Assembly: GCA_905178155.1 (NCBI GenBank)
Contig: CAJINV010000044.1
Span: 1 to 14,751 of the forward strand
Length of the DNA stretch: 14,751 nucleotides
Source of the DNA: Amoebophrya sp. A120
Lineage: Eukaryota; Protista; Dinoflagellata
Direction: 5' to 3'
Shown: piece by piece, positions 1 to 14,751 of the stretch
Layout: every line of letters starts with the position of its first letter
How positions within the stretch are numbered: the stretch's first letter is position 1
Position numbers and translations under genes: made by a program
Notes under the pieces: model-generated
Database searches by the model: none
What the model was told of the DNA's origin: nothing
Seen by the model: the letters and a program-made list of their open reading frames with translations, nothing else

Positions 1-616
1 TCCCGCGCCGTCCTGGGATAAACCTCCACCACGGGCACAGAAGTGGCGCCTATCCCCGCGCGAAACCAAACAGGCTGGGGCGGTGGCTTTCGTAGGTTTA
101 TCCCAGGCCGCCCCGGGATAAACCTCCACCCCGGGCAGAGCAATGGGCTTTATCCCCGTGCAGAGCAGGCGGGGGGGATGACAAACTGTCGTAGGTTTCT
201 CCCAGGCCGTCCTGGGATAAACCTCCACCACGGGCACAGAGGTGGTGCTTATCCCCGCGCGAAACAGGCTGGGGCGGTGGCTTTCGTAGGTTTATCCCAG
301 GCCGCCCCGGGATAAACCTGCACCACGGGCACGGCGGTGGGCGCTATCCCCATGCGAGACAGGCTGGGGGGATGCCTGTCGTAGGTTTATCCCGGGCCCT
401 CCTGGGATACATAAACCTCCACCACGGGCACAGGAGTGGGGTCTGTCCCCGCGCGCGCAAAACAGGCTGGGGCGGTGGCTTTCGTAGGTTTATCCCCGGC
501 CGCCCTGGGATAAACCTCCACCAAGGGCACAACAGTGGGACTCGCCCCCATGCAAAACAGGCTGGGCGGGCGCCTGTCGTAGGTTTATCCCAAGCCGCCC
601 CCCCTTGGATAAGCCT
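1..616. repeat. GC-rich tandem array, ~95-103 bp units (about 6 visible, may continue left of the window), alternating A/B units, hairpin at each unit junction
   Basis: GGGATAAACC or a variant recurs at about 15, 115, 214, 309, 404, 507 and 607. Junctions read AGGTTTATCCC-N~10-GGGATAAACCT (inverted repeat). Units 1/3/5 contain GGCGGTGGCTTTCGTAGG; units 2/4/6 contain CTGTCGTAGG. Confidence 0.92.
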
Positions 617-1005
617 CCCGCTAGCCAGGTCATCGGGCTGCGCGCCTGTTAGCGACTGGAAAGCCTTCAACCGCACCCCGTCAACGCCCGCGGCCTCCGG
701 GCTCACCCGCTGCAAATGCTGGCGCAACTGCTCGCCGACTATCGCTATCGGCGGCCGGCACCCATGTGCGAGCGGCCGCCAGCTCGTTAAGCATCTTGCG
801 GACCTCCTCCCCTGAGTACGTGCGCCCCCTTTGTTAATCCGCACGCCTTCGCCTTTCGGCAAGTGCCGCGCAGCGAGATGCTTCGTGCACTGTTCCACGC
901 CGTGGATGATGCTTGGCGCATCAGGCAAGCCGACGCCAAGTTCCGTCACTTGCGGAACTGGGGCGCCTCTGCCCTTCCCGCTCACTTCGTCTCGCGCTTG
1001 GCGTG
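612..1005 (-). CDS. Possible downstream exon of the 1146-2487 gene (hypothetical protein)
   Basis: Open frame (ORF 344..1015) directly after a T-rich acceptor-like TTTATTTTGATTCTAG (TAG at 1008-1006). I could not resolve its join to the upstream exon. Confidence 0.3.
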
Positions 1006-1145
1006 CTAGAATCAAAATAAATATAGCCGATCAGTTTTATTCGATACTGCTCCACTAGCTGCGCAACATGACCCTGCGATTCCAAATTTGTCATGCACAA
1101 CAGCAAAAGCTTCACCCTGGGGTGAGAACGTTTTCACGCAGGATA

Positions 1146-2487
1146 AGACCTCGAAGTAAGTCAAGCACTCGATGATCAAGTCACGGCTGGTAGTCGAAAG
1201 TACAATAGCAGCTTCCGCCACTGTATGAGATTCCACAATTCCCCCTCCCCCTGATTTGAGAAGTGGGGGGCATGAACAGCAACACAAGCTAGCAGTAGTA
1301 GAAGCAGAACTGAAAGAAGTTCTGTGGCCTCCGCATGACAAATCATAATCAGCAAACAGGCAGTGACTAGGTTGGGACTTCGGAAAGCTGTCATGCAAGC
1401 AGTGCGGAGAACTACAACCTTGAGTTGGTATTTTGCATGACAAATCATGATGAGGCGGAGGGGGGGTTGCGCAGTCTCATACGATGTGCCCAGGGTTGCT
1501 CCGTGGACACCAAGATCTTTGCGAAGGTCGTATGTTTGCCCGGTTGGAAATTTGCTTCTCCCCCGGACGGCAGCGACCAGTCGCCCGGCTGTGGCTTGTT
1601 TGACTTGGTAGAGGTGGTAGACGGGCTTGGCGTCGACAAACCCACCAGGAAGTAGCTTCGATCTTGTCGCAAAAATATCCATATGCAAATGTGCCTGGGG
1701 AAACAAAAATTTGCGTACCTTAGGGCTTCTACGAGATCTGTAGTGCATAAATTGGAGTGGAGAACTTGTTTGTCATGCTCAGATGAGCATGAGCACTGCA
1801 GGAAATAACATTCAATTCTCGGAAGGGCAGTTTGTCATGCGTGTATGCGTTTCTACTTTATATTAGTTGTTCACCAGGTACAACTACATCCAAAAAAAAA
1901 TATAGTACTTCCGTTAACGCAAGGAGCAGCAAGACAAATCATCTATATCGTACCAGACCCAGACACGTTTGCAGCTCGTAACACGTTACGACGAGCAAAC
2001 TTATCACTCCTAGTCCTCCGCTCGGGTCGGCAACTAGGCACATCGGCCGCTGGTTAGACTCTGCAGATTTAACGACTTGGTTCGCATCGACGCTTAGCGG
2101 CCTGCAACTTTCCCTGCATCGCCCCCTGCTGTGACATCTATTTCCGGTGAGCAGCCGAACTACTGCTCCGATGCTGCTGCTCCTCGGTGTAGTTGATGTT
2201 TGTTTTGTTGAAGTAGACCCCGGATTGCTATCCAGCGAAGATGAAGAAACGGACGACGAGGTGGACGCTACTTCTGCAACCGGTGTCCACGTGCTTGCTG
2301 GTTGTCTCGGAAATTCGGTACTTTCCGCGAAGTCTAGGACTTTCACCACTGGTTCGCGTAACTGCTCCTCAAGGATGTTCGCAGTGTCACTTCTACGAAC
2401 GGAAACGCTATGCATCGCAAACACGTAGTTGTCTAGATACGGAAGAATCCTCCGGGTTTGTGATGTGCAACTAGGCGGGGGTCCTCG
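1146..2487 (-). CDS. Hypothetical S/T-rich protein, partial spliced model with exons 2487-1981, 1675-1482 and 1223-1146
   Basis: Removing 1676-1980 (+5 nt) and 1224-1481 (+5 nt) joins three open frames: ...GLGVISLLVVTC/ATRSKLLPGGFVDAKPVYHLYQV...GATLGT/VAEAAIVLSTTSRDLIIECLTYFEV. The frame opens right after the acceptor-like TTACTTTTACTAG (2500-2488). Start and end are unresolved. Confidence 0.55.
1224..1481. mobile_element. TIR element / putative introner, family F (258 bp)
   Basis: Left end TATGAGATTCCACAATTCCCCCTCC; reverse complement of right end TATGAGACTGCGCAACCCCCCCTCC. Flanks CACTG/CGATG (3/5). GCATGACA motifs at 1333, 1389 (reverse) and 1435. Confidence 0.75.
1676..1980. mobile_element. 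Degenerate TIR element, family A-like (305 bp)
   Basis: Left TATCCATATGCAAATGTGCCTGG; right CCAGACCCAGACACGTTTGCAGCTCGTA. TGTCATGC at 1771 and 1833. TSD decayed (AAAAA/ACACG), but removal plus 5 nt keeps the frame. Confidence 0.6.
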
Positions 2488-2684
2488 CTAGTAAAAGTAA
2501 TAGTCAACGAAAGGGGAAAGGATTTGTCTAGTCACCGTCGATCATCACACCACACTTGTAACTTTTACGCGAACCGATTCCAACCGAAGTGATCACAGAC
2601 CAAAGAGGCATGCAATTACAAGCCGAAATATTTATGATCACGACATCATTCCTCCTCTGGAGGACCGAAAGGGCAAGGAAGTAC

Positions 2685-3846
2685 AGCTTTTTTCTGCCCC
2701 ATCACCATTACATTCTGCGAAGAACAAGTGTCTGATCGAGACACTTGGAGAGCAGAAAAGTGGTTCTTGCAGAACTTTCAAAAAAGAGAATCAGTTCGGT
2801 GGAGCTGTTCTAAGTCTATTTTTGCATGACAAATTATGCCAAAAATCCCAAACCCAAAGTTTGAGCTTTTTTCTGTCCAATCAGCACTACATTCTGCGAA
2901 GAACAAGTGTCTGATCGAGACACTTGGAGAGCAGAAAAGTGGTTCTTACAGAACTTTCAAAAACGAGAATCAGCTCGGTGGAGCTGTTCTAACTTTATTT
3001 TTGCATGACAAATTATGCCAAAAATCCCAAACCCAAAGTTTGACCTTTTTTCTGTCCAATCACCATTACATTCTGTGAAGAACAAGTATCTGATCGAGAC
3101 ACTTGGAGAGCAGAAAAGTGGTTCGTGCAGAACGTTCAAAAATGAGAATCAGCTCGGTGGAGCTGTTCTAAGCCTACTTTTGCATGAAAATTTATGCCGA
3201 AAATCCCAAAGCCGAAATTTGAGCTTTTTTCTGTCCAATCACCATTACATTCTGCGAAAAGCAAATGTCTGATCGAGACACTTGGAGAGCAGAAAAGTGG
3301 TTCGCGCAGAACTCTCAAAAATGAGAATCAGCTCGGTGGAGCTGTTCTAAGTCTACTTTTGCATGGCAAATTATGCCAAAAATCCCAAACCCAAAATTTG
3401 AGCTTTTTGCTGTCCAATCACCATTACATTCTGCGAAAAGCAAATGTCTGATCGAGACACTTGGAGAGCAGCAAAGTGGTTCGCGCAGAACTCTCAAAAA
3501 TGAGAATCAGCTCGGTGGAGCTGTTCTAAGTCTACTTTTGCATGGCAAATTATGCCAAAAATCCCAAACCCAAAATTTGAGCTTTTTGCTGTCCAATCAC
3601 CATTACATTCTGCGAAAAGCAAATGTCTGATCGAGACACTTGGAGAGCAGCAAAGTGGTTCGTGCAGAACTTTCAAACATAAGAATCAGCTCGGTGGCGC
3701 TGTTCTAAGTCTACTTTTGCATGTCAAATTATGCCAAAAATCCCAAAGCCGAAATTTGAGCTTTTTTCTGTCCAATCACCATTGAAGAACAAGTGTCTGA
3801 TCGACACATTTGGAGAGCAGAAAAGTGGTTCTTGCAGAACTTTCAA
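2685..3846. repeat. 179-bp tandem satellite, about 6.5 copies
   Basis: The ATGCC anchor recurs at 2836, 3015, 3194, 3373, 3552 and 3731 (exact 179-bp period). Units are highly similar; the last partial unit lacks ACATTCTGC. Internal hairpins CAAGTGTCT-GATCG-AGACACTTG (2725-2747) and CAGCTC-GGTG-GAGCTG. Confidence 0.97.
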
Positions 3847-4527
3847 GTTGAACAAGAATGCCTTGACATTAAAAACGTACGCAACATCGATGGTCGCCAG
3901 GCAGTGGAGACGAGCTCCCACAGTTTTTGAGGTTTCCTTGCATCACATCAGGGTTTCAAAGTAGTGCCACAACTTGCGATTCTCGTTCTCACATTGACAT
4001 TTTAGAATTTATTCTAGGGCGTGAAGTTCGCCTCACGAAGAAGCGCAATTTCAAGTAGTTCAAAGTAGTTCTACATACAAACAGCTACACTCGTTCCTTC
4101 CTTTCCCGGTGAAGCGAACCCCAACCGGTCTATCCATTTTACATTTTGACTTTAGCATACTTCCATCAAAATCGCAGAACTTCCTTACAATCCTGTGGAT
4201 TTCCGCATCAATGATCCATCTTCATCGTTGTCCAGTTTCATTTCACATTCCAGCAGTCCAGCTCCGTTTTTTAATTTTCCGACTTTGGTCGTTGCAGGGT
4301 GCAAAAACAGCGAGGACGGAAAGCGTGTTGGATCGTCGGAACCCGGTTTGGTTACCTACCAGTTCCGGGACGGAAATTTCCCACTCGTCAGCACCAACCC
4401 GAGGCTGTCGGAGAGTTGTCAAATTGAAAGATACAGTATTGAAGTCACACGTGCAGGTGCACCGGGGAATTGTTGTATATTTCATGCGAACATCATATTT
4501 CAAGAATTTATGAAAAAAAAACACTAT

Positions 4528-5334
4528 TTACCCGATCGCCACTAGCAACACCACAAACACAGATCCCAATCCCCAGTAAGACGTGGCGTTTTTTACCGTT
4601 CCGGTTACTGCAATTTGTGCTCTGCTTTTAATTTCCTCATGAGAACTGCAACGCGTGGTTTTCGAACTACTCGCTCCCCCGTCGAGCCGGGGCTCTTGCT
4701 CACGATCGACTGCGGGTTCGAGAATTGTGACCTCCTTGTGCAGCTTCTTCTCGACAAAGTTCAAAACCTTCATGTCGTCATTTTCAACTGCGCATCCCTG
4801 CGGCTCAGAGCTCCCCCTCCCGCGAAGTGCGGTGTCGATGTTTTCCACGAGATTCTTCAGGTGCTTCTGCCTCTCTTGGAACGACCACACGTTCGACAGG
4901 CCCCAGGCTGCAGAGGCATCAGTCTTCCTGCGCATGTCCTGGTTGAAAAGAAACACCTCCAGCTGGAAAATCTGGTCCCGCAACGCCGCTATCCACTTCT
5001 CCAGCGCCTCCAGTTGCAGTGTGTGCAGTCGGCGAGTTCGCGCGTCCGTGATCTTGCTCACAATGTCCTCGTGCACCCCCCGCTGTTGTACGAAATCCTG
5101 TTCAGCGTGCGCCAGCAGAGGCCACAGCCACTGACACTTCTGAATCAGCGTCTCCAGATCCGTGGCACTGTTTTCTAGTCTTTCGGAGCGGTTCACTTTC
5201 CATGCCACGTCTCCGACGCAGTGCAAGAGGTCGGAGACGTCATTCTTGTTCCGAAAGATACTGTTGTACGTGCGGGCGTAGAGGATCTGTTCGAGTGACT
5301 TCGAGAATTCTTTGTTTGCCCACTTAGTATCCAT
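4528..5334 (-). CDS. Hypothetical 268-aa helical protein with C-terminal hydrophobic (tail-anchor-like) segment, paralog 1
   Basis: ATG in an A-rich context, intact ORF. Shares blocks with the 6493 ORF (TDARxRRLHTLQLEALEKWIA, MKVLNFxEKKLHKEVTILEPAV). Ends GLGSVFVVLLVAIG*. Confidence 0.85.
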   Translation of the reverse strand: MDTKWANKEFSKSLEQILYARTYNSIFRNKNDVSDLLHCVGDVAWKVNRSERLENSATDLETLIQKCQWLWPLLAHAEQDFVQQRGVHEDIVSKITDARTRRLHTLQLEALEKWIAALRDQIFQLEVFLFNQDMRRKTDASAAWGLSNVWSFQERQKHLKNLVENIDTALRGRGSSEPQGCAVENDDMKVLNFVEKKLHKEVTILEPAVDREQEPRLDGGASSSKTTRCSSHEEIKSRAQIAVTGTVKNATSYWGLGSVFVVLLVAIG

Positions 5335-6492
5335 TCTTTTTCTTTATCTTCTCGGGGTCGAGAAACAACGAACTGCAAAAAAAACCACGGTGAGTCTCCG
5401 CTAAAACTTCTTCCTGTACTATATTTGGACAAATAAGAATAACAACACTCTTCGTGGCGGCCCGCATCAGTTACGGCGGAAAAAAATTTATTTAATGCCG
5501 TGTTCCCTTACTAAGCGAACGGTGTTTGAGATTCAAATTTGAATTCAAAGCGTCGACACGGCAAAATCTCTCGCCCAAAAAACTTTTATCGCTCAGCAAA
5601 CACCACCAAAGCAAAACCTCTCACAATCCTTATCTGCGTTTCAGGCTCTGCTTTGGTTCAAAACAAAACAAAACAAAAGCGACAGGATGGTACCGAGCGA
5701 GATAGGCGAAATGTGAAGCTAAAAAACGACAGAACGCGACTGCACGCCAGAAACATTCGGTGGTCTAGTTGCCATGCCAGAGCGTCAACCCTGAACCTCC
5801 TAAACGTCGACTCTAGTTTAATAGTCACATCAGAATCGCAATAGCGACGCTTCGGTAGCTAGGAGAACTACCGTGTTTCATAAGGCAGATTTTCTTGTTA
5901 GCTCTCGTCAGGAGTTTGAAGTAAGTACTATCAATCTCGTCGCTATTCTGATATTTCAGAACTTGGTCGCATCACGACCAATAAACGCAAGCTTAAAGCA
6001 GCTTCGGCACAACACTAGTTCTACATTGAAACAGCTATCTATCAATGAACTACCTACACTCGTTCCTTATCTTCCCCACCGGTCTAAGCATTTCACTTTT
6101 TATACTCATACATCCATATTTACTCTATACACTTCATCGATTTTCAGCAAAATTTCCGTGCACTTCATCTTCGAACTTCCACATCATTCCGTCGTGTTCA
6201 TCGTCCAGTTTCATTTCACATTCCAGCAGTCCAGCTAAATTATTCAAGTTGAAGTTTCCGACTTTGGTTCTTGCAGCATTCAAAACCAGCAAGGAAGAGG
6301 TTCTTGATCGTCGAGACCAGCGCTACCAGTTTCGGGGGAGAAATTCCCCCTTCGTCAGTTGTAGCCACCCGAGCCTGTTGTATAAAAGAGTTGTGACGTT
6401 GAGAGACCCACCAGTAAGTATCAAAATTCTGGTGCGTGCAGGAACTTCATGCGAACATATTTCAACATTTATTTAGGAAAAAAAGTAAGTCC

Positions 6493-7352
6493 TTACCCAA
6501 TCGCGACTAGGACCAGCAGCGCCGCAAACACGAAGCCCGCTCCGAACGTGGCGATCGCCGTCCCGGTAACCGCAACTTTCCTCTTTGTTTCCACATCACC
6601 GCCCCGCCGCGTGGTATCCTCGGTAGTTGTGGAATGGTCAAGCGGTTCTTCTTCCTCCTCAACTGCGGGTTCGAGAATTGTGACCTCCTTGTGCAGCTTC
6701 TTCTCGAGAAAGTTCAAAACCTTCATCTGGTCATTATTACGTTTCCCCCACCCGCCGAACCCAACATCTACAAAGCTGCAACTGTTCCCGCGCAGGGCCT
6801 TGTGAATGTTGTCCAACAGGTACCTCAGCTGTTGGTATATTCTAGAAAGGTTCAACATCCCCAGGGTGGCCGCAGTCTTTTTTGCAGCTCTTTCGAAGCG
6901 GAAACTACCCCCGTCTGTTCCCACGGGGAAACCCTGTTCCTCGTTGACAAGACACACCTCCAGCTCAAAAATCTGGTCCCGCATGTCCGCTATCCACTTC
7001 TCCAGTGCCTCCAGCTGCAGAGTGTGCAGTCGGCGAGCTCGCGCGTCCGTGACGCCACTCACGATCGCGTCGTGCTTCTCTCGCCATTGCTGGAGGGTTA
7101 CAACTATTCCCGCTACATCGCTCCACACCGACCGAGCCTTCATAATCAGCCACTCCACGTCCTTCCGCAAGCTGGACGAGACGGGGGCCATCCTCGCTCT
7201 TCGCACTATTCCTTCAATTGCTTGCAGCAGGTCGACGACGCTTCCCTCCAGGTCCGCTTCACCAAAGTGATTTTCACCAAAGACTTCTTGTTGAGGAACT
7301 CCCACAGGTCACTTTCAATTTGCTGAGAGTTGCCATTCCACTCCATATCCAT
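6493..7352 (-). CDS. Paralog 2 of the tail-anchored hypothetical protein; 5' frameshift (pseudogene, tiny intron or sequence error)
   Basis: Main frame 6493-7305 is homologous to 4528-5334. The homologous start AAAATGGATATGGAGTGG (MDMEW vs MDTKW) lies at 7352 in another frame, and the main frame has TGA at 7311-7309. Confidence 0.75.
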
Positions 7353-8147
7353 TTTTCTGTAGTTCAGTCCTCAGGGAACAAGCCCTGCGCAATTTGGGCA
7401 GACAACTAATATCATAGAAACGGCAAAAAAAAAGATTAACGACGGCGAATTTCTACAACATTTTTTTTGGACAAGAAAGTTCATCCTATGGATTGAGGTT
7501 AAGATTGAGAAGACTGCCAACTACAACAAGTTTCTCGAACGATAAAACGAGAACGAGAAGATAGAACCAAGAAATCCTGTACTGTCGAACTTGACGAAGT
7601 GAGAAGCGTACAACCATAAAAGCTCCCTCGTCTCTCCGCTCTACTCTTTCGTCTTTCTCTTTATGTAAGCCGTATAATATTGTTCCGTTACGTGTCGAAC
7701 ACTGTTGAGGGGTCAAACTCAATAATCTACTTGTGCAGTCATGGGACCACTTCTGAGTGGTCTAAAAGGAAACTAATTATACAGAACCATAAAGGTCGTC
7801 GAGCAGACTTACACATTCATCAATACGACTTGGTCATGCTCGATGGAGAATCGAATTTGGAAATTAATTGTACACGAAGATCTTCTTGATCAGAACCGTT
7901 ATTCCCAAAGAAGTAGTAGGAGTGCTGACAACGTAAAATCATACACCGATGGCACGACAGAGCGCGTTTAAGGTTATCATACATTTTCAAAAGACAACCG
8001 AAAATAAAATAGATCGGGATAATAGTAAAAGTAAAATTCCTACGCGCATTAATGATTTTGTCATGCGTGGAGAGGCAGTTCGTCTTCTTCGAGCTCAACC
8101 AGCATAATTCAGAATCATCTTACACAATGCGGTGTGCTCGTCCTCAA

Positions 8148-8467
8148 TATCAAAAGGAAAAATTCCCCCACCCCATATCAAAAGAAGTCTCTGATGCTGG
8201 ATTTCAGTACACAAATCAGATTTGTCTTGCAGTAGAGGACTGCAGGCATACGCAAAGCCTGAGCCGCGATGTTTTGGCGTAGGCTCCTAGCATGAAAAAC
8301 GTTGACGGTGTAGGCCCAACAGCATCACAAACCGCCTGCACAATGCGGCGGATTCTCTGCATTTGCCTGCATGCAAGACAGACAGGATTTGTGGTCACAA
8401 ATCCGCATCACAGATTTTCAGAAGGATGCGCTTTCAATATGGGGAGGGGGGATTTTTCCTCACAATA
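8148..8467. mobile_element. TIR element family B (320 bp)
   Basis: TATCAAAAGGAAAAATTCCCCCACCCCATAT...ATATGGGGAGGGGGGATTTTTCCTCACAATA; perfect TSD CTCAA/CTCAA. Confidence 0.93.
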
Positions 8468-8522
8468 CTCAAAACTTGTTGTTCCACCCAACTGGCGATC
8501 CGATTAGACTCGATCGCCAGGA

Positions 8523-8731
8523 TATGCAAGAAAAAAACGTTGTTAATGTAAATCTGTGATGCGTAACATGCAAGATGATTGCGCTTGTCATGCTTGGCAT
8601 GCATCGCAGGGTCTATTAAAGGATGTTTTCACGTTCTATCTGCGCATGACAGGTTTTTGCTGTCATGCCAGACAAGTTTGTAATGCTTCTCCTCCAAAAA
8701 AGTTACACCTACAATGTTTTTTTCTTGGATA
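8523..8731. mobile_element. TIR element family G (209 bp)
   Basis: TATGCAAGAAAAAAACGTTGT...ACAATGTTTTTTTCTTGGATA; perfect TSD CAGGA/CAGGA; several GCATGACA/TGTCATGC motifs. Confidence 0.9.
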
Positions 8732-8926
8732 CAGGACCTCCCCTCGACCTGCTCCTGCCGCCGATAACTGCTAGCCGCCCAGGAGGGCGCTCAGAGCCAA
8801 TAACTGGCACTCACGAATCATACAGTACAACACTACAACCACCAGATGCTGGCGGCGTTAATAAGGAGTAATCGTGGTAGCCTACAACTTGAGGATTTAT
8901 CATCCTTTCAGAAGTACGAGTGCCGA

Positions 8927-9242
8927 TATGGGGGTGTCAGGATTGAAATCGTTAAAGTTGAAATAAGTAGTTTCTCATGCATAAAATGCAGCCCACAAAG
9001 CGCCGGTCTTGCGGAGTAGGCAAGTGAGGCAGATGTAAGCCTGTTGAGGGGTAGAAACTGAGGTGCTAAAGTAGCATGACAAAAGGCGCCTTCCTTTGCC
9101 AAACAGCATGACAAACTGGATTTCAGGTCTACCCAAATTTGTCATGCGCCAATTGGAACCTGGGTCACAGCAACTTATTTCATCCATTCTATGCATTGCA
9201 AGTTCTTTCAACTTTGTCGATTTCAATCCTGACACATCCATA
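8927..9242. mobile_element. TIR element family D (316 bp)
   Basis: TATGGGGGTGTCAGGATTGAAATCGTTAAAGTTGAAA...TTTCAACTTTGTCGATTTCAATCCTGACACATCCATA; TSD GCCGA/TCCGA (4/5). Confidence 0.9.
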
Positions 9243-9305
9243 TCCGAGTTTTTTATCCTGCTCCGTCAGAGAATTGACAGTTCCTCATCGTTCCCATGTT
9301 CCCGT

Positions 9306-12300
9306 TCACGGCTGTTGTGTAGAAGTAGCCTGTTGCGTAGCCTGGGTGGACGCGCGTTGACCACGGGGTCTTCTCATGCCTGCGGCAACTGATCGCATCG
9401 TGTCTCTCATCGATCGCCCTGCCCTTCGTGCAGCGTTCCCAGCACTTGTGCGGCTGCGCCTTGCCGATTCTCCTGCGCTCCGCGCAATCCTCACGAAAAA
9501 AGCGCGCAGTTGCCGGAGGCTTTCCTGAAACTGTTCCGCGGCTGCGCTGCTAGCTCTCCCGAGGCGTTGTCTCGCGCTCGTCATGCCGGACCGAATAGCT
9601 GCACCAGTCGGTCTATTGATTGCAAATATGTCTGAGTCTGGAAGATTGCTGGTGCAAGTTGTCATGCTAAATATAGAATCATACAAAAAATCTGTGTTGC
9701 GTGAATACCAAAAGCTGCAGTCCACGTTCGACCAAAATGAGAGCGAGTTTCTCATGCAGGATTTCCATGACTGAGACCTCACAAAACCTGTCATGCTAGG
9801 TCCCGCACTCCAGACCTCCTGGGTACATGGAAAACCTGCATGACAAAGCTTGCATTCTTGCAACCCCAGACATATTTGCAATCCATACGGTCGCAGCAAG
9901 CGATCTCGCACCGGGCGTCCTATCCTGAGTAAAAACGTCCCCAACGTGTAGTCAAGATGGGGATCATAATTTTGCAACAACAACCTAGACGTCTTGGGGG
10001 TTACACATGACAGGTCGCAATCCGTGGTCGTGTAGTGCAGATTAGAGAGGACAGTCGCATCATAAATCCATTTTCTCATTCTGTTTACAGCATTACGAAT
10101 TCCAAAACATGACAGAGAATGGCTCTCATGATGGGGATAATGCGCATCACAAATGGTTTTGGAATTGCAAATCTGCATGACAACTACTGCGTGGGGACGT
10201 AGTTTTCACCCAGGATACGTCCGACAGCTGCGCCAGTCCTGTAAGCAAACCCGCCAACTGCTCTGGCTCCGCTCGCAATGCCTCTGCCCGCTGCTTTGGC
10301 TCCGATCGCAATAGCACCACTCGCTGCTCTGTATCAAGTGCAAAAGTGTCTGGCTCTGGAAACTTGTGATGCGGGTAGGACAATCATGAGGACGCCCCAA
10401 CTTGCAGCTCCGCATGACAAGTCTCTGGGTAGTACCTACGGTGTTGCGTATTCTGCATGACAGAGCGCGTTCCTGCATGACTGAAAAATAGGGCTTTTGG
10501 GTAATGTGCATGACAGACTTGGGAGTCATGCTAGCAGTGCATGACAAGTCTCAGAATCTTCCAGACCCAGACATTTTTGCAGTCCATACTCTGGCTCCGC
10601 GCGCAACAGCACCACGAACTCTTCTCAGTCCCCGCACTACCTATTGTGAGGAAAAATCCCCCCTCCCCATACCAGAACGGGATACTTCTCAAAATTTGTG
10701 ATGCTGATTTGAGGTCACAAATCGTCTCTGTATTGCAAGAAGAGAAATAAAAAAACCCCGCCGCGTTCTGCAGGCAATTTGTCATGCTGTCTGGCCTACA
10801 GAGAATGTCCCTACCTTGCTAGGCGCCTACGCCAAAACAGCCCTATTCCGGCTATGAATCTGTCTGCAGTCCTCTACCGCAAGAGAAGGCCGATTTGTGT
10901 ACACAAATCCCGCATCACAGATTTTCATTTCGATATGGGGTGGGGGGATTTTTCCTTTTGATACTACCGGGGGTCCAACCACGGCGCCGGCCGCGTAAAC
11001 ACCATCTCTAGCTGCGCGGTATGCATTGCAAATATGTCTGCGTCTGGAAGCTGTCATGCTGTTTTTGCACGACACAGAAGGTCTGGCATGGAAGCCCTGG
11101 CGTCACAGATTTCGAGAAGGTTTTGCAATGCCTAATCCGCATGACAAATCCCCAACTTTGGTGAAGACGAAAAGTGGGCAACACCTTTTGCTGTCTATGC
11201 ATGAGAGATTTCTGTGTGTTGTGAAATGCGCATCACAACTCCACATCCTTCGAGACCCAGACATTTTTGCAGTTGATACGCGGCCCGCCTGCGCAACGCC
11301 TCTGCCGACGTGCGCCAAACCTCTATCCCAGAGAAAAAACCTGGCAGGGCATATTTGTAATGCAAAAACAAATACACACTAAAACTTGTCATGGGTGGCC
11401 CCATAGCATGCTGTTTCGGATTTGCAATGCATATTTTTTTGTGTATTTATTTTTGCATGACAAATATGCCCTGCCAGCTTTTTTCTGTGTGATAACCTCT
11501 GCCTGCTGCTTTGGCTCCGGTCGCCACACCTCTGCCTGCTGCTCTGGCTCCGGTCGCAATAGCACCACCCGTCGCTTGCAGCGCTCTGCCCGTGCAGGCT
11601 GCCGCCCGACCGGCCGCATCGCAAACCATCGCCACCGGCGGACGGATCGCTGCGCGAAGGCGGGAGAGAAAAAGCCCGACCATTCGGCCAAACGCCACCA
11701 TCGCGGGCCACATGTAATCACGGCCGAGAGTCCCGATGGCGCTCCCGACAGTCGTGATGGCTCTCCCGACAGTCCTGAGCGCACAGAGCAATCCGGACCA
11801 CATGGCAGTTGCGGCGCTCGCCAACCTGCGCCACAGCCCTCTCGCGGCCGCTCCGCCCAACTCCCCGGCTCTTCGGGCGATGTTTCCGGCGATATTGAGG
11901 AAAGAGATCGCGGCCCGGGAGATCCCGTGTACGACGAATTCCACAACGGGGGCGCCGAACGCCACAGCGCGCCGAATGCCACTTTCCGCAAGACCGAAAA
12001 GAAAGCCGCCGGCTTGCCAAATAGCGTCTCCGAGTGCGATATGCAATGCAAATATGCCTGGGTCATCTGGACTTTTTGTTATGCGACATTTCAAGGGCAA
12101 CAAGATGGATCTGTAATGCATGAACAGAATTGGCCATTTTTTTTGTCGTGCTGAAAGCCAATTAGTCATGCGTTTCGCGAACGAATCTGCGATAAGCCTC
12201 GCAAAATTTCTATATGCTGTATATGCCGTACAACAAGTGGCCACTCTACTGCGCTGCGAGCCGTTCGGCAACACAGATTTATGATTCCAGACGCAGTAGA

Positions 12301-14751
12301 CATATTTGCAGTTTGATAAGCGACCATTCCCGTGCCCAATCGCCTGATGCCGCTTGCCACAAGTGTGCCGAGAGGAGAGAGCACGTATGTACGGGTGTAT
12401 TGTGAGGAAAAATCCCCCCTCCCCATATCGAAACGAAGTCTCTCACGCTGGATGTCCGTACACAAGTCAGAGCTGTCTTGCAGTAGAGGATTAGAGGCAT
12501 ATGCCGTGCCTGGGTACAGAGCTTCTGGCGTGGACGCTTAGCATCACAAACGTCTATGCTGTAGCCCAAGCAGCATCACAAACCGCGCGCATAATGCGGC
12601 GGAGACTGTAGAGCTGCCTTCTTGCAAGACAAATGGGTTTTTTTTGTGACCTCAAATCACCAACACAAATTTGCGGAGACATACCTTTTCAATATGGGGA
12701 GGGGGGATTTTTCGTTTCAATAAGGTCCACCTTGCCGCGCTCCACACCGCGTTCCCGACGTTTTGTGCAACCACTTGGACCGCCGCCAGTCCCCTCACCG
12801 CTGCCGCTGCAATACCGTTAAACACGATAACCGCTCCGCTGGCGAACAAGTTTCCTACCCTGGTGAGCACGTCCCACAGCACTGCTCCCATAGCGACAAG
12901 GCCGTGCAGAATCGGCCTGCCGAGGTTGTTGTACAGAGTATTGAGAGGAAAAATCCCCCCTCCCCATATCGAAAAGGCATGCTTCCGGAAATTTGTCTTG
13001 CTGATTTGAGACCACAAATCACGTCTGTCTTGCAAGAAGACAAATGCAGAGGCTTCCCTGCCATTATGGGAGCGGTTTGGCATGCTGTTCGGCCTAGAGG
13101 ACAGCCGTTTGAAATGCTAAGCAACTAGACCAAAATGTCCCTCCCTAGGCTGCGGATCTGGCTGCGATGCCGTATTGCAAGACAGCGCGTATTTGTGTAC
13201 GCAAATCTTGCATCACAGATTTCCCATTTGATATGGGGTGGGGGGATTTTTCCTTTTGATACAGAGCCTGCCCTACCCGCTGCGCCGCATTAGCGACAGA
13301 CACCAACACGGTGGCGATCCCGCTGCCGACCCATCCGGCCGCCCTTTATCAAGTGTAAAAATGTCTGGGTCTGGAAGATTGCCAGGTTTGTCATGCACAT
13401 TTTGCATGACTCCTGATGTCTGTGATGCATGCCCTAGCATCACAGATCTTGTGAGGGCTTCCAGATGCCTATACCGCATGACAAATGCTCTTTCCGTGTA
13501 GCAAAACTTGGACTCTCTTTGCTGCTAAAGCAATACAGATTTTTTCAGAATCCAAAATCAGCATGACAAGTTGGATTCTTCCAGACCCAGACATTTTTAC
13601 TTTTGATACCCTTCCGACGTTGACAAAACCCGTCCACACCGCCTGCGCCAACGTGGTGACCAAGCTGCTAAAGGCCAGCACAAAGTTGCTCCCGAACGCC
13701 AGCAGCTGCGGCGTGATCCGGCGGGCGACCCGCGCTGCCCCGCGCCACAGAAACACAATGGCCTCCGGGAGGCAAACCACCGCCAGGTGCGACAGGCCTT
13801 GAACGCTGATGCTGATCAGGTACACCACCGTAAACAGAACCGTGAAAGCCCCCCGCAAGGCTTTGGTAAAAAATCTTATCAACTGCAAAAAATGTCTGGG
13901 TCTGGAAGATTGCCATGTTTGTCATGCAGGTTTTCTGTGGCTCATAAGGTTTACAATGCAGCACCTAGCATGACAAAGTCTGTGAGGTCTCTATCATGGC
14001 TATCCTGCGTGAGAAATTCCCTCTCAACCTGGTAAAAAAGGACGGCTGTTGGTAATCACGCAATACAGATTTTTTGCATGATTCAGATTTAGCATGACAA
14101 GTTCCAATTCTTCCAGACCCAGACATATTTGCAATGCATACATCTTTGCACAAGACCACTCGGTCTCGGGGCGATAGGCTGGTGAACACCTTGTCGATCC
14201 TGCGGAAGAACCTCCCCTACGAGGGGCTGGGCGGCGGGGTTCATGCTAGTTGCTGGCTCTTGCAGTGCTTCTTCAACATCCCCTTGTTCATCATCATCGC
14301 CCCCCAGGCTAAGCCAAGGCCGGAATTGGCCACATTGCATCTGACGCTCGCGCTCGGGCTGGTCCTGGTCCTCCCCACGACCCTGGGGCAGACGGCGGTC
14401 GGGCTGGTGCTGGTCCTCCCCCTGGGGCAGATGACCTTCTTGCATGAAAGATACCCCGGCGGTGTCCATGCGGTCGACGTCCTCAGGATCGTTGGGAAGA
14501 TCAGCAGCTGTTGAACCGTTTTGCCCCTCGCCGCTGGCAACAACCTCCGCCGCTCGATGGTACGCGGCGTGTGCATCTGCCACGGCCCGACCAACAATCT
14601 CTTCCAGTGCAGCGGCGTCGACATCGACGGCGGGGGCGGCTGTCGTCCCGTTCAGCCGGGGGTTTTCTCGTTCCGGATGTTGAACAACGCTAGTACCAGC
14701 AGGTCCATCACCAGGTTGTAGAGCTTGGCTAACCGCCTGTTGACTAAGATC
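9306..14751 (-). CDS. Large hypothetical protein, 5'-truncated by the window (at least 785 aa), split into 12 exons by 11 TIR elements
   Basis: Segments including both TSD copies: 14751-14141, 13876-13609, 13346-13262, 12938-12723, 12397-12319, 12039-11495, 11323-11279, 11019-10964, 10641-10589, 10331-10218, 9920-9888, 9613-9306. Removing each element plus 5 nt (3088 nt in total) leaves 2358 nt = 786 codons with no internal stop, ending TGA at 9308-9306. Acidic Q/P-rich N-part, a hydrophobic segment, then A/G/R-rich 11-mer repeats. Confidence 0.9.
9614..9887. mobile_element. TIR element / putative intron, family A (274 bp)
   Basis: TATTGATTGCAAATATGTCTGAGTCTGGAAGA...CCCAGACATATTTGCAATCCATA; TSD CGGTC/CGGTC. 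Opposite orientation to the 13347 and 13877 copies. Confidence 0.93.
9921..10217. mobile_element. TIR element / putative intron, family E (297 bp)
   Basis: TATCCTGAGTAAAAACGTCCCCA...TGGGGACGTAGTTTTCACCCAGGATA; TSD CGTCC/CGTCC. Confidence 0.9.
10332..10588. mobile_element. TIR element / putative intron, family A (257 bp)
   Basis: TATCAAGTGCAAAAGTGTCTGGCTCTGGAA...TTCCAGACCCAGACATTTTTGCAGTCCATA; TSD CTCTG/CTCTG. Confidence 0.93.
10642..10963. mobile_element. TIR element / putative intron, family B (322 bp)
   Basis: TATTGTGAGGAAAAATCCCCCCTCCCCATA...TATGGGGTGGGGGGATTTTTCCTTTTGATA; TSD CTACC/CTACC. Confidence 0.93.
11020..11278. mobile_element. TIR element / putative intron, family A (259 bp)
   Basis: TATGCATTGCAAATATGTCTGCGTCTGGAAG...CTTCGAGACCCAGACATTTTTGCAGTTGATA; TSD CGCGG/CGCGG. 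Confidence 0.93.
11324..11494. mobile_element. TIR element / putative intron, family C (171 bp, mostly palindromic)
   Basis: TATCCCAGAGAAAAAACCTGGCAGGGCATATTTGTAATGCAAAAACAAATACACA and its near-perfect reverse complement at the right end; TSD ACCTC/ACCTC. Confidence 0.93.
11495..11570 (-). repeat. 33-bp coding tandem repeat (11-aa unit ARAAGRGVATG), with a related block at about 10258-10331
   Basis: ACCTCTGCCTGCTGCT(T/C)TGGCTCCGGTCGC occurs twice, 33 bp apart. CCTCTGCCCGCTGCTTTGGCTCCGATCGCAATAGCACCAC occurs near 10281. Confidence 0.8.
12040..12318. mobile_element. TIR element / putative intron, family A-like, diverged (279 bp)
   Basis: TATGCAATGCAAATATGCCTGGGTC...AGACATATTTGCAGTTTGATA; TSD TGCGA/AGCGA (4/5). 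Confidence 0.88.
12398..12722. mobile_element. TIR element / putative intron, family B (325 bp)
   Basis: TATTGTGAGGAAAAATCCCCCCTCCCCATATCGAAA...TTTCAATATGGGGAGGGGGGATTTTTCGTTTCAATA; TSD GGGTG/AGGTC (3/5). Internally the same orientation as 8148, opposite to 10642 and 12939. Confidence 0.92.
12939..13261. mobile_element. TIR element / putative intron, family B (323 bp)
   Basis: TATTGAGAGGAAAAATCCCCCCTCCCCATATC...GATATGGGGTGGGGGGATTTTTCCTTTTGATA; TSD CAGAG/CAGAG. Confidence 0.93.
13347..13608. mobile_element. TIR element / putative intron, family A (262 bp)
   Basis: TATCAAGTGTAAAAATGTCTGGGTCTGGAAGA...TCTTCCAGACCCAGACATTTTTACTTTTGATA; TSD CCCTT/CCCTT. Confidence 0.94.
13877..14140. mobile_element. 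TIR element / putative intron, family A (264 bp)
   Basis: TATCAACTGCAAAAAATGTCTGGGTCTGGAAGA...TCTTCCAGACCCAGACATATTTGCAATGCATA; TSD AATCT/CATCT (4/5). Confidence 0.93.

Follow-up and report, generated by a model that had tools for sequence, protein, structure and literature searches.

Introner elements of Amoebophrya sp. A120 in one gene and an internal motif common to their families

Short elements with TAT…ATA ends are scattered over a stretch of 14,751 nucleotides (nt) from the dinoflagellate Amoebophrya sp. A120 (contig CAJINV010000044.1, positions 1 to 14,751; hereafter the window), and they raise the question of how elements of several families come to be moved and removed in the same manner. 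They are the introner elements already published for A120; the class being known, it is the mode of movement and removal that remains the question. Very probably, the 14 elements lying in a gene are non-autonomous mini-transposons with terminal inverted repeats (TIRs) that are absent, together with one copy of a 5-bp repeat, from likely RNA, and that are likely moved and likely spliced in the way set out below. An internal motif, GCAT(G/C)ACA, is common to most of them.

Elements of the window and their removal from transcripts

Elements were delimited by a scan for TAT…ATA spans with TIRs, followed by manual checks. Sixteen were obtained, 171-325 nt in length and together 4,441 nt; two are found in 1224-1980 and 14 are packed at 8148-14140, all within one minus-strand gene (Table 1). 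They fall into seven end-families, A to G, of which C to G are singletons, and both the number of about seven families with different TIRs and the length of 170-325 bp given in a first-pass annotation of this DNA are thereby borne out. The grammar which it proposed, TAT…ATA ends with a 5-bp target site duplication (TSD), holds in part: it is present, but the duplication is perfect in only 10 of the 16 elements, matches at 4/5 positions in three and at 3/5 in two, and is missing from one, and the ends share TAT-N7-AAA beyond TAT itself. Among the 14 genic elements, TAT-N7-AAA is found at 24 of the 28 ends and TAT at all 28, and the 5-bp repeat, perfect in 10 and imperfect in four, overlaps the intron borders. 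The elements fit none of the superfamilies that the annotation had excluded (Tc1/mariner, PIF/Harbinger, hAT and Transib), and, as it stated, no transposase is encoded among the five open reading frame (ORF) proteins of the window that were scanned (no Pfam match at the cut-off); elements of 171-325 nt are too short to contain one. Rfam gave 0 matches, as did the family-A end pattern in viral contigs. The annotation erred in treating the elements as intergenic miniature inverted-repeat transposable elements (MITEs) of an unclassified kind, as 14 of the 16 are introns of one gene and belong to the published A120 class.

When spliced, the host gene contains a minus-strand frame of 785 codons, open at the window end and with its stop at 9308-9306, so that 11 elements are placed in the coding sequence (CDS) and three in the 3' untranslated region (UTR). 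The strand was assigned from the longer protein-like frame, the lower GC content of 7776-9305 and two neighbouring genes on the same strand; a competing plus-strand spliced frame has 677 codons.

From 8142 to 14142, the joints listed for the contigs of run X3 leave out every one of the 14 elements. Runs X4 and X6 are represented by one contig each (3,893 and 3,921 nt), in which the pieces listed and the intervals between them correspond to 15 joined exons with 0 other letters; these contigs start at 7776 and extend about 870-890 nt past the window. All three runs cover genes and lack 1-3936, as expected of RNA, and their depth differs between genes. The removed length equals the element plus exactly 5 nt in all 14 introns, which restores the 785-codon frame, and retention would introduce in-frame stops at 10 of the 11 CDS elements. 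Between the skipping contigs and the window the exons show 0 differences. The 14 genic elements thus likely act as introns of the host gene. In DNA the elements are present, since contigs of the DNA-like run X1, which covers the window evenly at about 44x, traverse elements 9921-10217 and 12040-12318 (contigs 9789-10360 and 11467-12424); the window itself may derive from X1, which hence does not count as independent support. The summed contig depth of X1 over elements, up to 228,084 in a bin compared with about 45 for single-copy sequence, indicates many copies and is not itself a copy number.

The precise loss of an element with one repeat would also resemble an empty site, in an allele or strain lacking the elements, or programmed somatic excision like that of ciliate internal eliminated sequences (IESs), and the skipping runs are RNA by guess only. 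Absence at the DNA level is nevertheless very improbable: the skipping runs cover genes only, share the start at 7776 and vary in depth from gene to gene, the evenly covered X1 keeps the elements, the exons are identical to the window, and the joint at the 3/5 repeat combines letters of both copies.

Reads of the raw RNA runs X9-X11, which bear the same species label, match element interiors only, at 90-95% identity. Hundreds of them fall on the interiors 11381-11421, 8624-8668 and 14071-14130 with fixed foreign flanks, and the flanks of the 11381-11421 matches recur in an X3 contig of great depth. It would seem that some abundant transcripts keep related elements.

Where the repeat is perfect, six placements of the junction are equivalent. 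At the imperfect repeats, RNA-type contigs keep position 5 of the downstream copy in four cases out of four, and therefore the base before TAT leaves with the intron; at the 12398 junction position 1 of the upstream copy is kept as well. The same boundaries are repeated in X4 and X6. The cut is located inside the duplications, and the simplest single rule places it 1-4 nt before TAT and 4-1 nt after ATA.

Several known introners co-opt a GT donor from the duplication, and the window introns might be ordinary spliceosomal introns of this kind, with G/TAT read as GTAT. On the sense strand G directly precedes TAT in 10 of the 14 introns, and it is removed in 4/4 informative junctions; neighbour concordance for G/TAT came to 18 versus 9 pairs, which are non-independent. 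Such an origin is improbable all the same. A GT-AG placement on the sense strand is possible for only two of the 14 introns and impossible for 12. In the larger sample of elements described below, G precedes TAT in 29 of 85 strand-called elements, the other four positions giving 26-33 of 85 (the strand calls being noisy, with one window exon mis-called), and strand-free counts (171 cases) give G a frequency of 0.32 against a background of 0.27. In the published A120 families GT is listed for about a quarter of copies, for example 998 of 3,852 in the portion of the data considered (PMC12130899). The G/TAT donor is thus largely refuted.

All 14 introns were predicted to fold into hairpins closed by their TIRs (z of -2.6 to -10.6, 30 shuffles each), with 14-23 of the 25 terminal bases paired; in the example folded, the 5-nt repeats are unpaired tails. 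An excess of G-U over A-C pairs, as a mark of RNA-level selection on the stem, was sought and not found. Copies of one family face both ways and all are removed (B, 8148 versus 10642; A, 9614 versus 13877), so that the removal signal must be symmetric, and, orientation and flanking bases being irrelevant, the splice signal is limited to the symmetric ends. The introns of the putative 3' UTR (three of the 14, in 7776-9305) meet no reading-frame demand, yet are removed with equal precision. A hairpin between direct repeats is a known source of false non-canonical introns in one account (extract of PMC4176328), and all evidence here comes from cDNA-derived contigs. That reverse transcriptase merely switched templates across GC-rich hairpins is still a slight chance at best, as in each of three runs the dominant contig lacks all 14 elements at once, the imperfect repeats (3/5 and 4/5) obey the same +5 rule, and retention would break the frame at 10 of the 11 CDS sites.

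A common motif and its place in mobilisation and splicing

The family-A end pattern was searched in a metagenome collection and gave at least 162 loci; all 80 listed share one contig prefix. Elements were called in these loci by TAT-N6-8-AAA ends and a TIR, the duplication not being required, which yielded 221 distinct elements, 73-95% identical to those of the window. A perfect 5-bp repeat flanks 171 of them, against a mean of 1.1 and a maximum of 7 for shuffled pairing, and 0 have a repeat of 6 or 7 bp; another 33 have a 5-bp repeat with one mismatch, and the repeat has no base preference in the loci. An excess of mismatches at the outer repeat positions, 4/4 in the window, proved to be chance in the loci (15/33). 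Together with the 16 window elements the 237 elements form 22 clusters, family A accounting for 141. Pairwise comparison of clusters 0-10 gave a match in no more than 18 of 55 pairs, the longest being 59 nt. The two ends of one element match closely at positions 8-15 and poorly at positions 4-7, positions 1-3 being fixed by the search pattern.

Five longer TAT…ATA spans with 5-bp repeats were also found (457-1,031 nt), one of which consists of three separate elements. The remaining spans, L027 632-1465, L055 1594-2224, L053 571-1051 and L030 1804-2260 (457-834 nt), have family ends, a perfect 5-bp repeat and interiors unlike the short elements, and L027 is near the size of the published A120 families of about 810 bp. 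Such spans may have arisen by capture of DNA, may be what is left of an autonomous element, or may be paired by chance.

GCAT(G/C)ACA, written GCATSACA in the searches, matches 47 times in the window against 1.27 expected, a count reached by 0 of 200 shuffles. Forty-two matches lie in the 4,441 nt of elements and five in the other 10,310 nt, and 15 of the 16 elements carry the motif, 12040 having no exact copy. The first-pass annotation placed the motif correctly inside elements, including 1333, 1389 and 1435, and its remark that the motif is scarce in exons and in 4000-8000 agrees with one match in 3,028 nt of exon and none between 3948 and 8058. In the larger sample the density is 10.9/kb inside elements (612 in 55,986 nt), and one copy occurs in 17,744 nt of clean flanks (about 0.06/kb, the chance level), these being 60-nt flanks from which any with another end signature had been discarded. 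The unmasked remainder of the loci contains 2.0 motifs/kb, and 236 of 263 (in loci of at least 1,500 nt) lie within 350 nt of another, a clustering that would be expected of unrecognised or cut-off elements.

When each cluster is given one vote, the most widely shared 8-mer is GCATGACA, in 16 of the 22 clusters, followed by its overlaps and then by the variants GCATCACA and GCATTACA; an exact motif copy is present in 213 of the 237 elements. The copies are set in mirror orientation: TGTSATGC prevails in the second tenth of elements (128 versus 3) and GCATSACA in the ninth (118 versus 4), as they do when family A is left out (18 versus 1 and 22 versus 1). In most cases 32-55 nt separate the start of the outermost copy from the element end. 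Helical (10.5-bp) phasing of the motif-to-end distance was rejected (p = 0.16 on 34 modal positions). A literature word search for GCATGACA or TGTCATGC gave unrelated papers only, where figures, logos or Roy et al. 2023 could show the motif, and no internal motif common to the elements is named in the text of Farhat et al. 2021 (PMC7789003), whose figures may show more. The shared motif is the part not found in print, the element class and the grammar of its ends being already known.

GCAT(G/C)ACA is likely a binding site, as yet putative, of the enzyme that moves the elements. It might instead be a host signal, recognised either by an RNA-binding protein that would designate the hairpin as a splicing substrate or by a host DNA-binding factor borrowed by the elements. 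The mirror placement does give an equal distance of the motif from the intron 5' end in either orientation, the motif is common to families that have only short mutual matches (59 nt at most), it recurs in a 179-bp tandem array that does not look mobile, and no transposase is reported for A120 in the text of PMC7789003. A host signal is considered the less likely of the two roles, and rather unlikely in itself, for intron 12040 is removed with no exact motif, elements 1224 and 1676, seen in no transcript, carry it too, and it pairs with a mirror copy in the predicted fold of six of the 14 introns and end-to-end in only three. Mirror-oriented subterminal repeats are, moreover, the usual arrangement of transposase sites. 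A possible link to ApiAP2 (TGCATGCA-type) is a lead only.

Movement of the elements is probably due to one integrase-type DDE transposase resembling those of Ginger, GingerRoot or IS3EU. Such an enzyme would cut at TAT, tolerate the variable spacer at positions 4-7, grip the A-tract and the subterminal GCAT(G/C)ACA motifs, and make a 5-nt staggered cut at any target; many families would share one grammar because they borrow the same enzyme. The single machinery suggested in the first-pass annotation is upheld to the extent that the grammar is shared across families not alignable end to end, the machinery itself remaining putative.

For removal, which was seen in cDNA-type contigs, hairpin-guided splicing with no need of GT-AG is on balance favoured. 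In the pre-mRNA the TIRs would pair and leave both duplications as single-stranded tails, the stem bringing the repeats side by side. A divergent spliceosome, in which the stem would replace U1 and AG recognition, would most likely make the cuts in the tails; otherwise an endonuclease and ligase may do so. Insertion in either orientation would thereby be harmless.

Several observations weigh against this account. Regarding removal, X3, X4 and X6 are RNA by guess only, none of the runs listed as containing this sequence being on record as RNA, and consist of strandless contigs assembled from a single sample; in the raw RNA runs X9-X11 the host-gene exons are not covered, so that these runs are uninformative on this gene. 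The stem has G-U and A-C pairs in nearly equal number, 63 versus 60 in 82 strand-called elements and 11 versus 13 in 12 window introns. Regarding the motif, five window copies lie outside elements, two of them in the 179-bp array, family 1 has it in only nine of 23 copies, and the removal of intron 12040, which has no exact copy, counts against a need for the motif in splicing. The larger sample is biased, as family A makes up 141 of its 237 elements. Regarding movement, no transposase or motif-binding protein was found in this analysis, and no autonomous element, 10 frames from two of the longer spans giving no Pfam match at the cut-off; the 5-bp TSD departs from the 6-bp rule of GingerRoot and IS3EU; and Farhat et al. 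2021, in the text of PMC7789003, report no transposase in A120 and argue against mobilisation by one.

A further and doubtful proposal is that GCAT(G/C/T)ACAAA is a common licence of the introner ecosystem, one protein both moving the families and marking them for cutting. A domesticated integrase-like transposase, or a DNA- or RNA-binding partner, would read the mirror-set motifs of dozens of unrelated families, and marking during transcription would direct a cut that needs no GT-AG and reverses, on RNA, the 5-nt stagger. If true, transposition and splicing would be coupled through one recognition code, which would account for the tolerance of about 30,000 insertions in either orientation, in a genome for which U1 small nuclear RNA (snRNA) was not found.

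The motif, the element + 5 rule and the bounds of the cut are additions that make the question of movement and removal testable. The motif common to the families is a handle for pull-downs and for finding the autonomous element, and the strict element + 5 rule with its cut inside the duplications can be fixed genome-wide from imperfect repeats. An intron indifferent to its flanking 5-mer and to its own orientation could, in addition, serve as a tool for scarless insertion.

Other features of the window

The host protein (9306-14751, minus strand) is at least 785 residues long; its N-terminal part is acidic, and it further contains a hydrophobic segment and long amphipathic-looking repeats rich in Ala, Gly and Arg. 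Three of its exons were scanned and gave no Pfam match. For exon 11495-12034 no longer homologue was found among 7,990 candidates, which is weak evidence, and the host protein therefore stays unannotated. On the same strand, 4381-5343 (P0003) and about 6340-7326 (P0004) are tandem paralogues, 45% identical, each with a C-terminal hydrophobic stretch and no Pfam match; the protein at 4528-5343 has two matches among 965 candidates, both from A120 (one a paralogue), and no relatives outside A120 among them. By its sequence, a short intron of P0003 reads GT…AG, and neighbouring genes thus contain introns of the canonical and of the non-canonical kind.

Two tandem arrays are also present. The array at 2685-3846 contains 6.5 units of 179 bp with 92% matches; in its units the motif, or a variant differing by one base, stands in an element-like context, after a T run and before AATTATG, with two exact copies (2824 and 3003). 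It has no match in the sampled metagenome loci and may be derived from an element or share a binding factor with the elements. The array at 1-600 has six copies of a unit of about 95-99 bp, which hold a 22-nt TAT…ATA palindrome resembling the ends of families E and F.

Table 1. Host gene and TAT…ATA elements of the window (names of elements in the text are their first positions)
Feature	Coordinates	Strand	Remarks
Host gene	7776..14751	- (inferred)	15 exons in the window; 5' end beyond the window; 670-nt spliced 3' UTR
Element, family G	1224..1481		Repeat 3/5; motifs at 1333, 1389 and 1435; in no transcript seen
Degenerate family-A-like copy	1676..1980		Right end GTA; no duplication; two motifs; in no transcript seen
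Introner, family B, 3' UTR	8148..8467		Perfect 5-bp repeat; faces opposite way to 10642
Introner, family C, 3' UTR	8523..8731		Perfect repeat
Introner, family D, 3' UTR	8927..9242		Repeat 4/5, informative junction; no A-tract
Introner, family A, CDS	9614..9887		Perfect repeat; interior inverted relative to 13877
Introner, family E, CDS	9921..10217		Perfect repeat
Introner, family A, CDS	10332..10588		Perfect repeat
Introner, family B, CDS	10642..10963		Perfect repeat; GT-AG placement possible
Introner, family A, CDS	11020..11278		Perfect repeat
Introner, family F, CDS	11324..11494		Perfect repeat; GT-AG placement possible
Introner, diverged family A, CDS	12040..12318		Repeat 4/5, informative junction; no exact motif, still removed
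Introner, family B, CDS	12398..12722		Repeat 3/5; junction sets cut between repeat positions 1 and 5
Introner, family B, CDS	12939..13261		Perfect repeat
Introner, family A, CDS	13347..13608		Perfect repeat; family of highest depth in DNA-like run X1
Introner, family A, CDS	13877..14140		Repeat 4/5, informative junction

Comparison with known systems

The papers cited in this section are represented by extracts. The introner elements of A120 were described by Farhat et al. 2021 (PMC7789003) as hairpin-forming sequences of about 240 nt, the inverted repeats of which open with TAT followed by seven variable bases and three or more A, and whose borders are overlapped by direct repeats of 3-5 nt (5 bp according to the Fig. 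S19 legend), with 29,850 repeated introns in 1,954 families. In that text U1 snRNA was not detected, no transposase was found and the splice border was left undefined ('1-5 nt'). The window elements are these published elements: they share the host, the protein at 4528-5343 being 100% identical to an A120 protein, and also the TAT-N7-AAA ends, the repeat over the borders, non-canonical removal, the division into families and the lack of an internal transposase. They differ in that the repeat is here a strict 5-mer, the removed length is the element plus 5 nt, and the cut is narrowed.

Gozashti et al. 2025 (PMC12130899) list 58 A120 introner families, most of the rows examined being filed as 'TIR DNA, unknown'. 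Family 38 is filed as 'TIR DNA, Ginger' with '5-bp TSD, TA/TA termini' (supplementary file 8, row 580); it is about 810 bp long and has TIRs and ORFs resembling the integrase regions of the long terminal repeat (LTR) elements Copia and Gypsy. By its description it resembles the window elements in its 5-bp TSD, TA/TA termini, flanking TIRs and introns with mostly non-canonical borders, and differs in its length and ORFs, the window elements being 171-325 nt and non-coding. GingerRoot and IS3EU elements (PMC6839031, PMC10045372) have TA..TA termini, as do the window elements, along with TIRs, no target-sequence preference and an integrase/IS3-like DDE enzyme. Their TSD is of 6 bp (6-8), their TIRs are of 100-150 bp and their lengths 3.9-12.9 kb, in contrast to the 5-bp TSD of the window elements, in which no enzyme was seen; membership is not claimed, because of that 6-bp TSD and because no enzyme was found here.

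The TIR introners of Symbiodinium and Aureococcus (PMC9860276) are likewise MITEs that became introns via the TSD, with GT/GC-AG borders unlike those of the window introns, only 2/14 of which could be given the GT-AG borders of canonical U2 introns. Finally, the nonconventional introns of Euglena (PMC12501133), for which a MITE-like origin has been proposed, have no GT-AG and a signature N3CDG…CHGN5-6/R. They belong to an unrelated lineage and have CDG…CHG with an exonic purine; this signature is absent from the window introns, which have TAT…ATA, offsets adding up to 5 and no constraint on the flanking bases. The two are alike in the terminal stem with staggered cuts outside it, N3 before and N5-6 after in Euglena, an arrangement found here in the predicted folds and the junction bounds.

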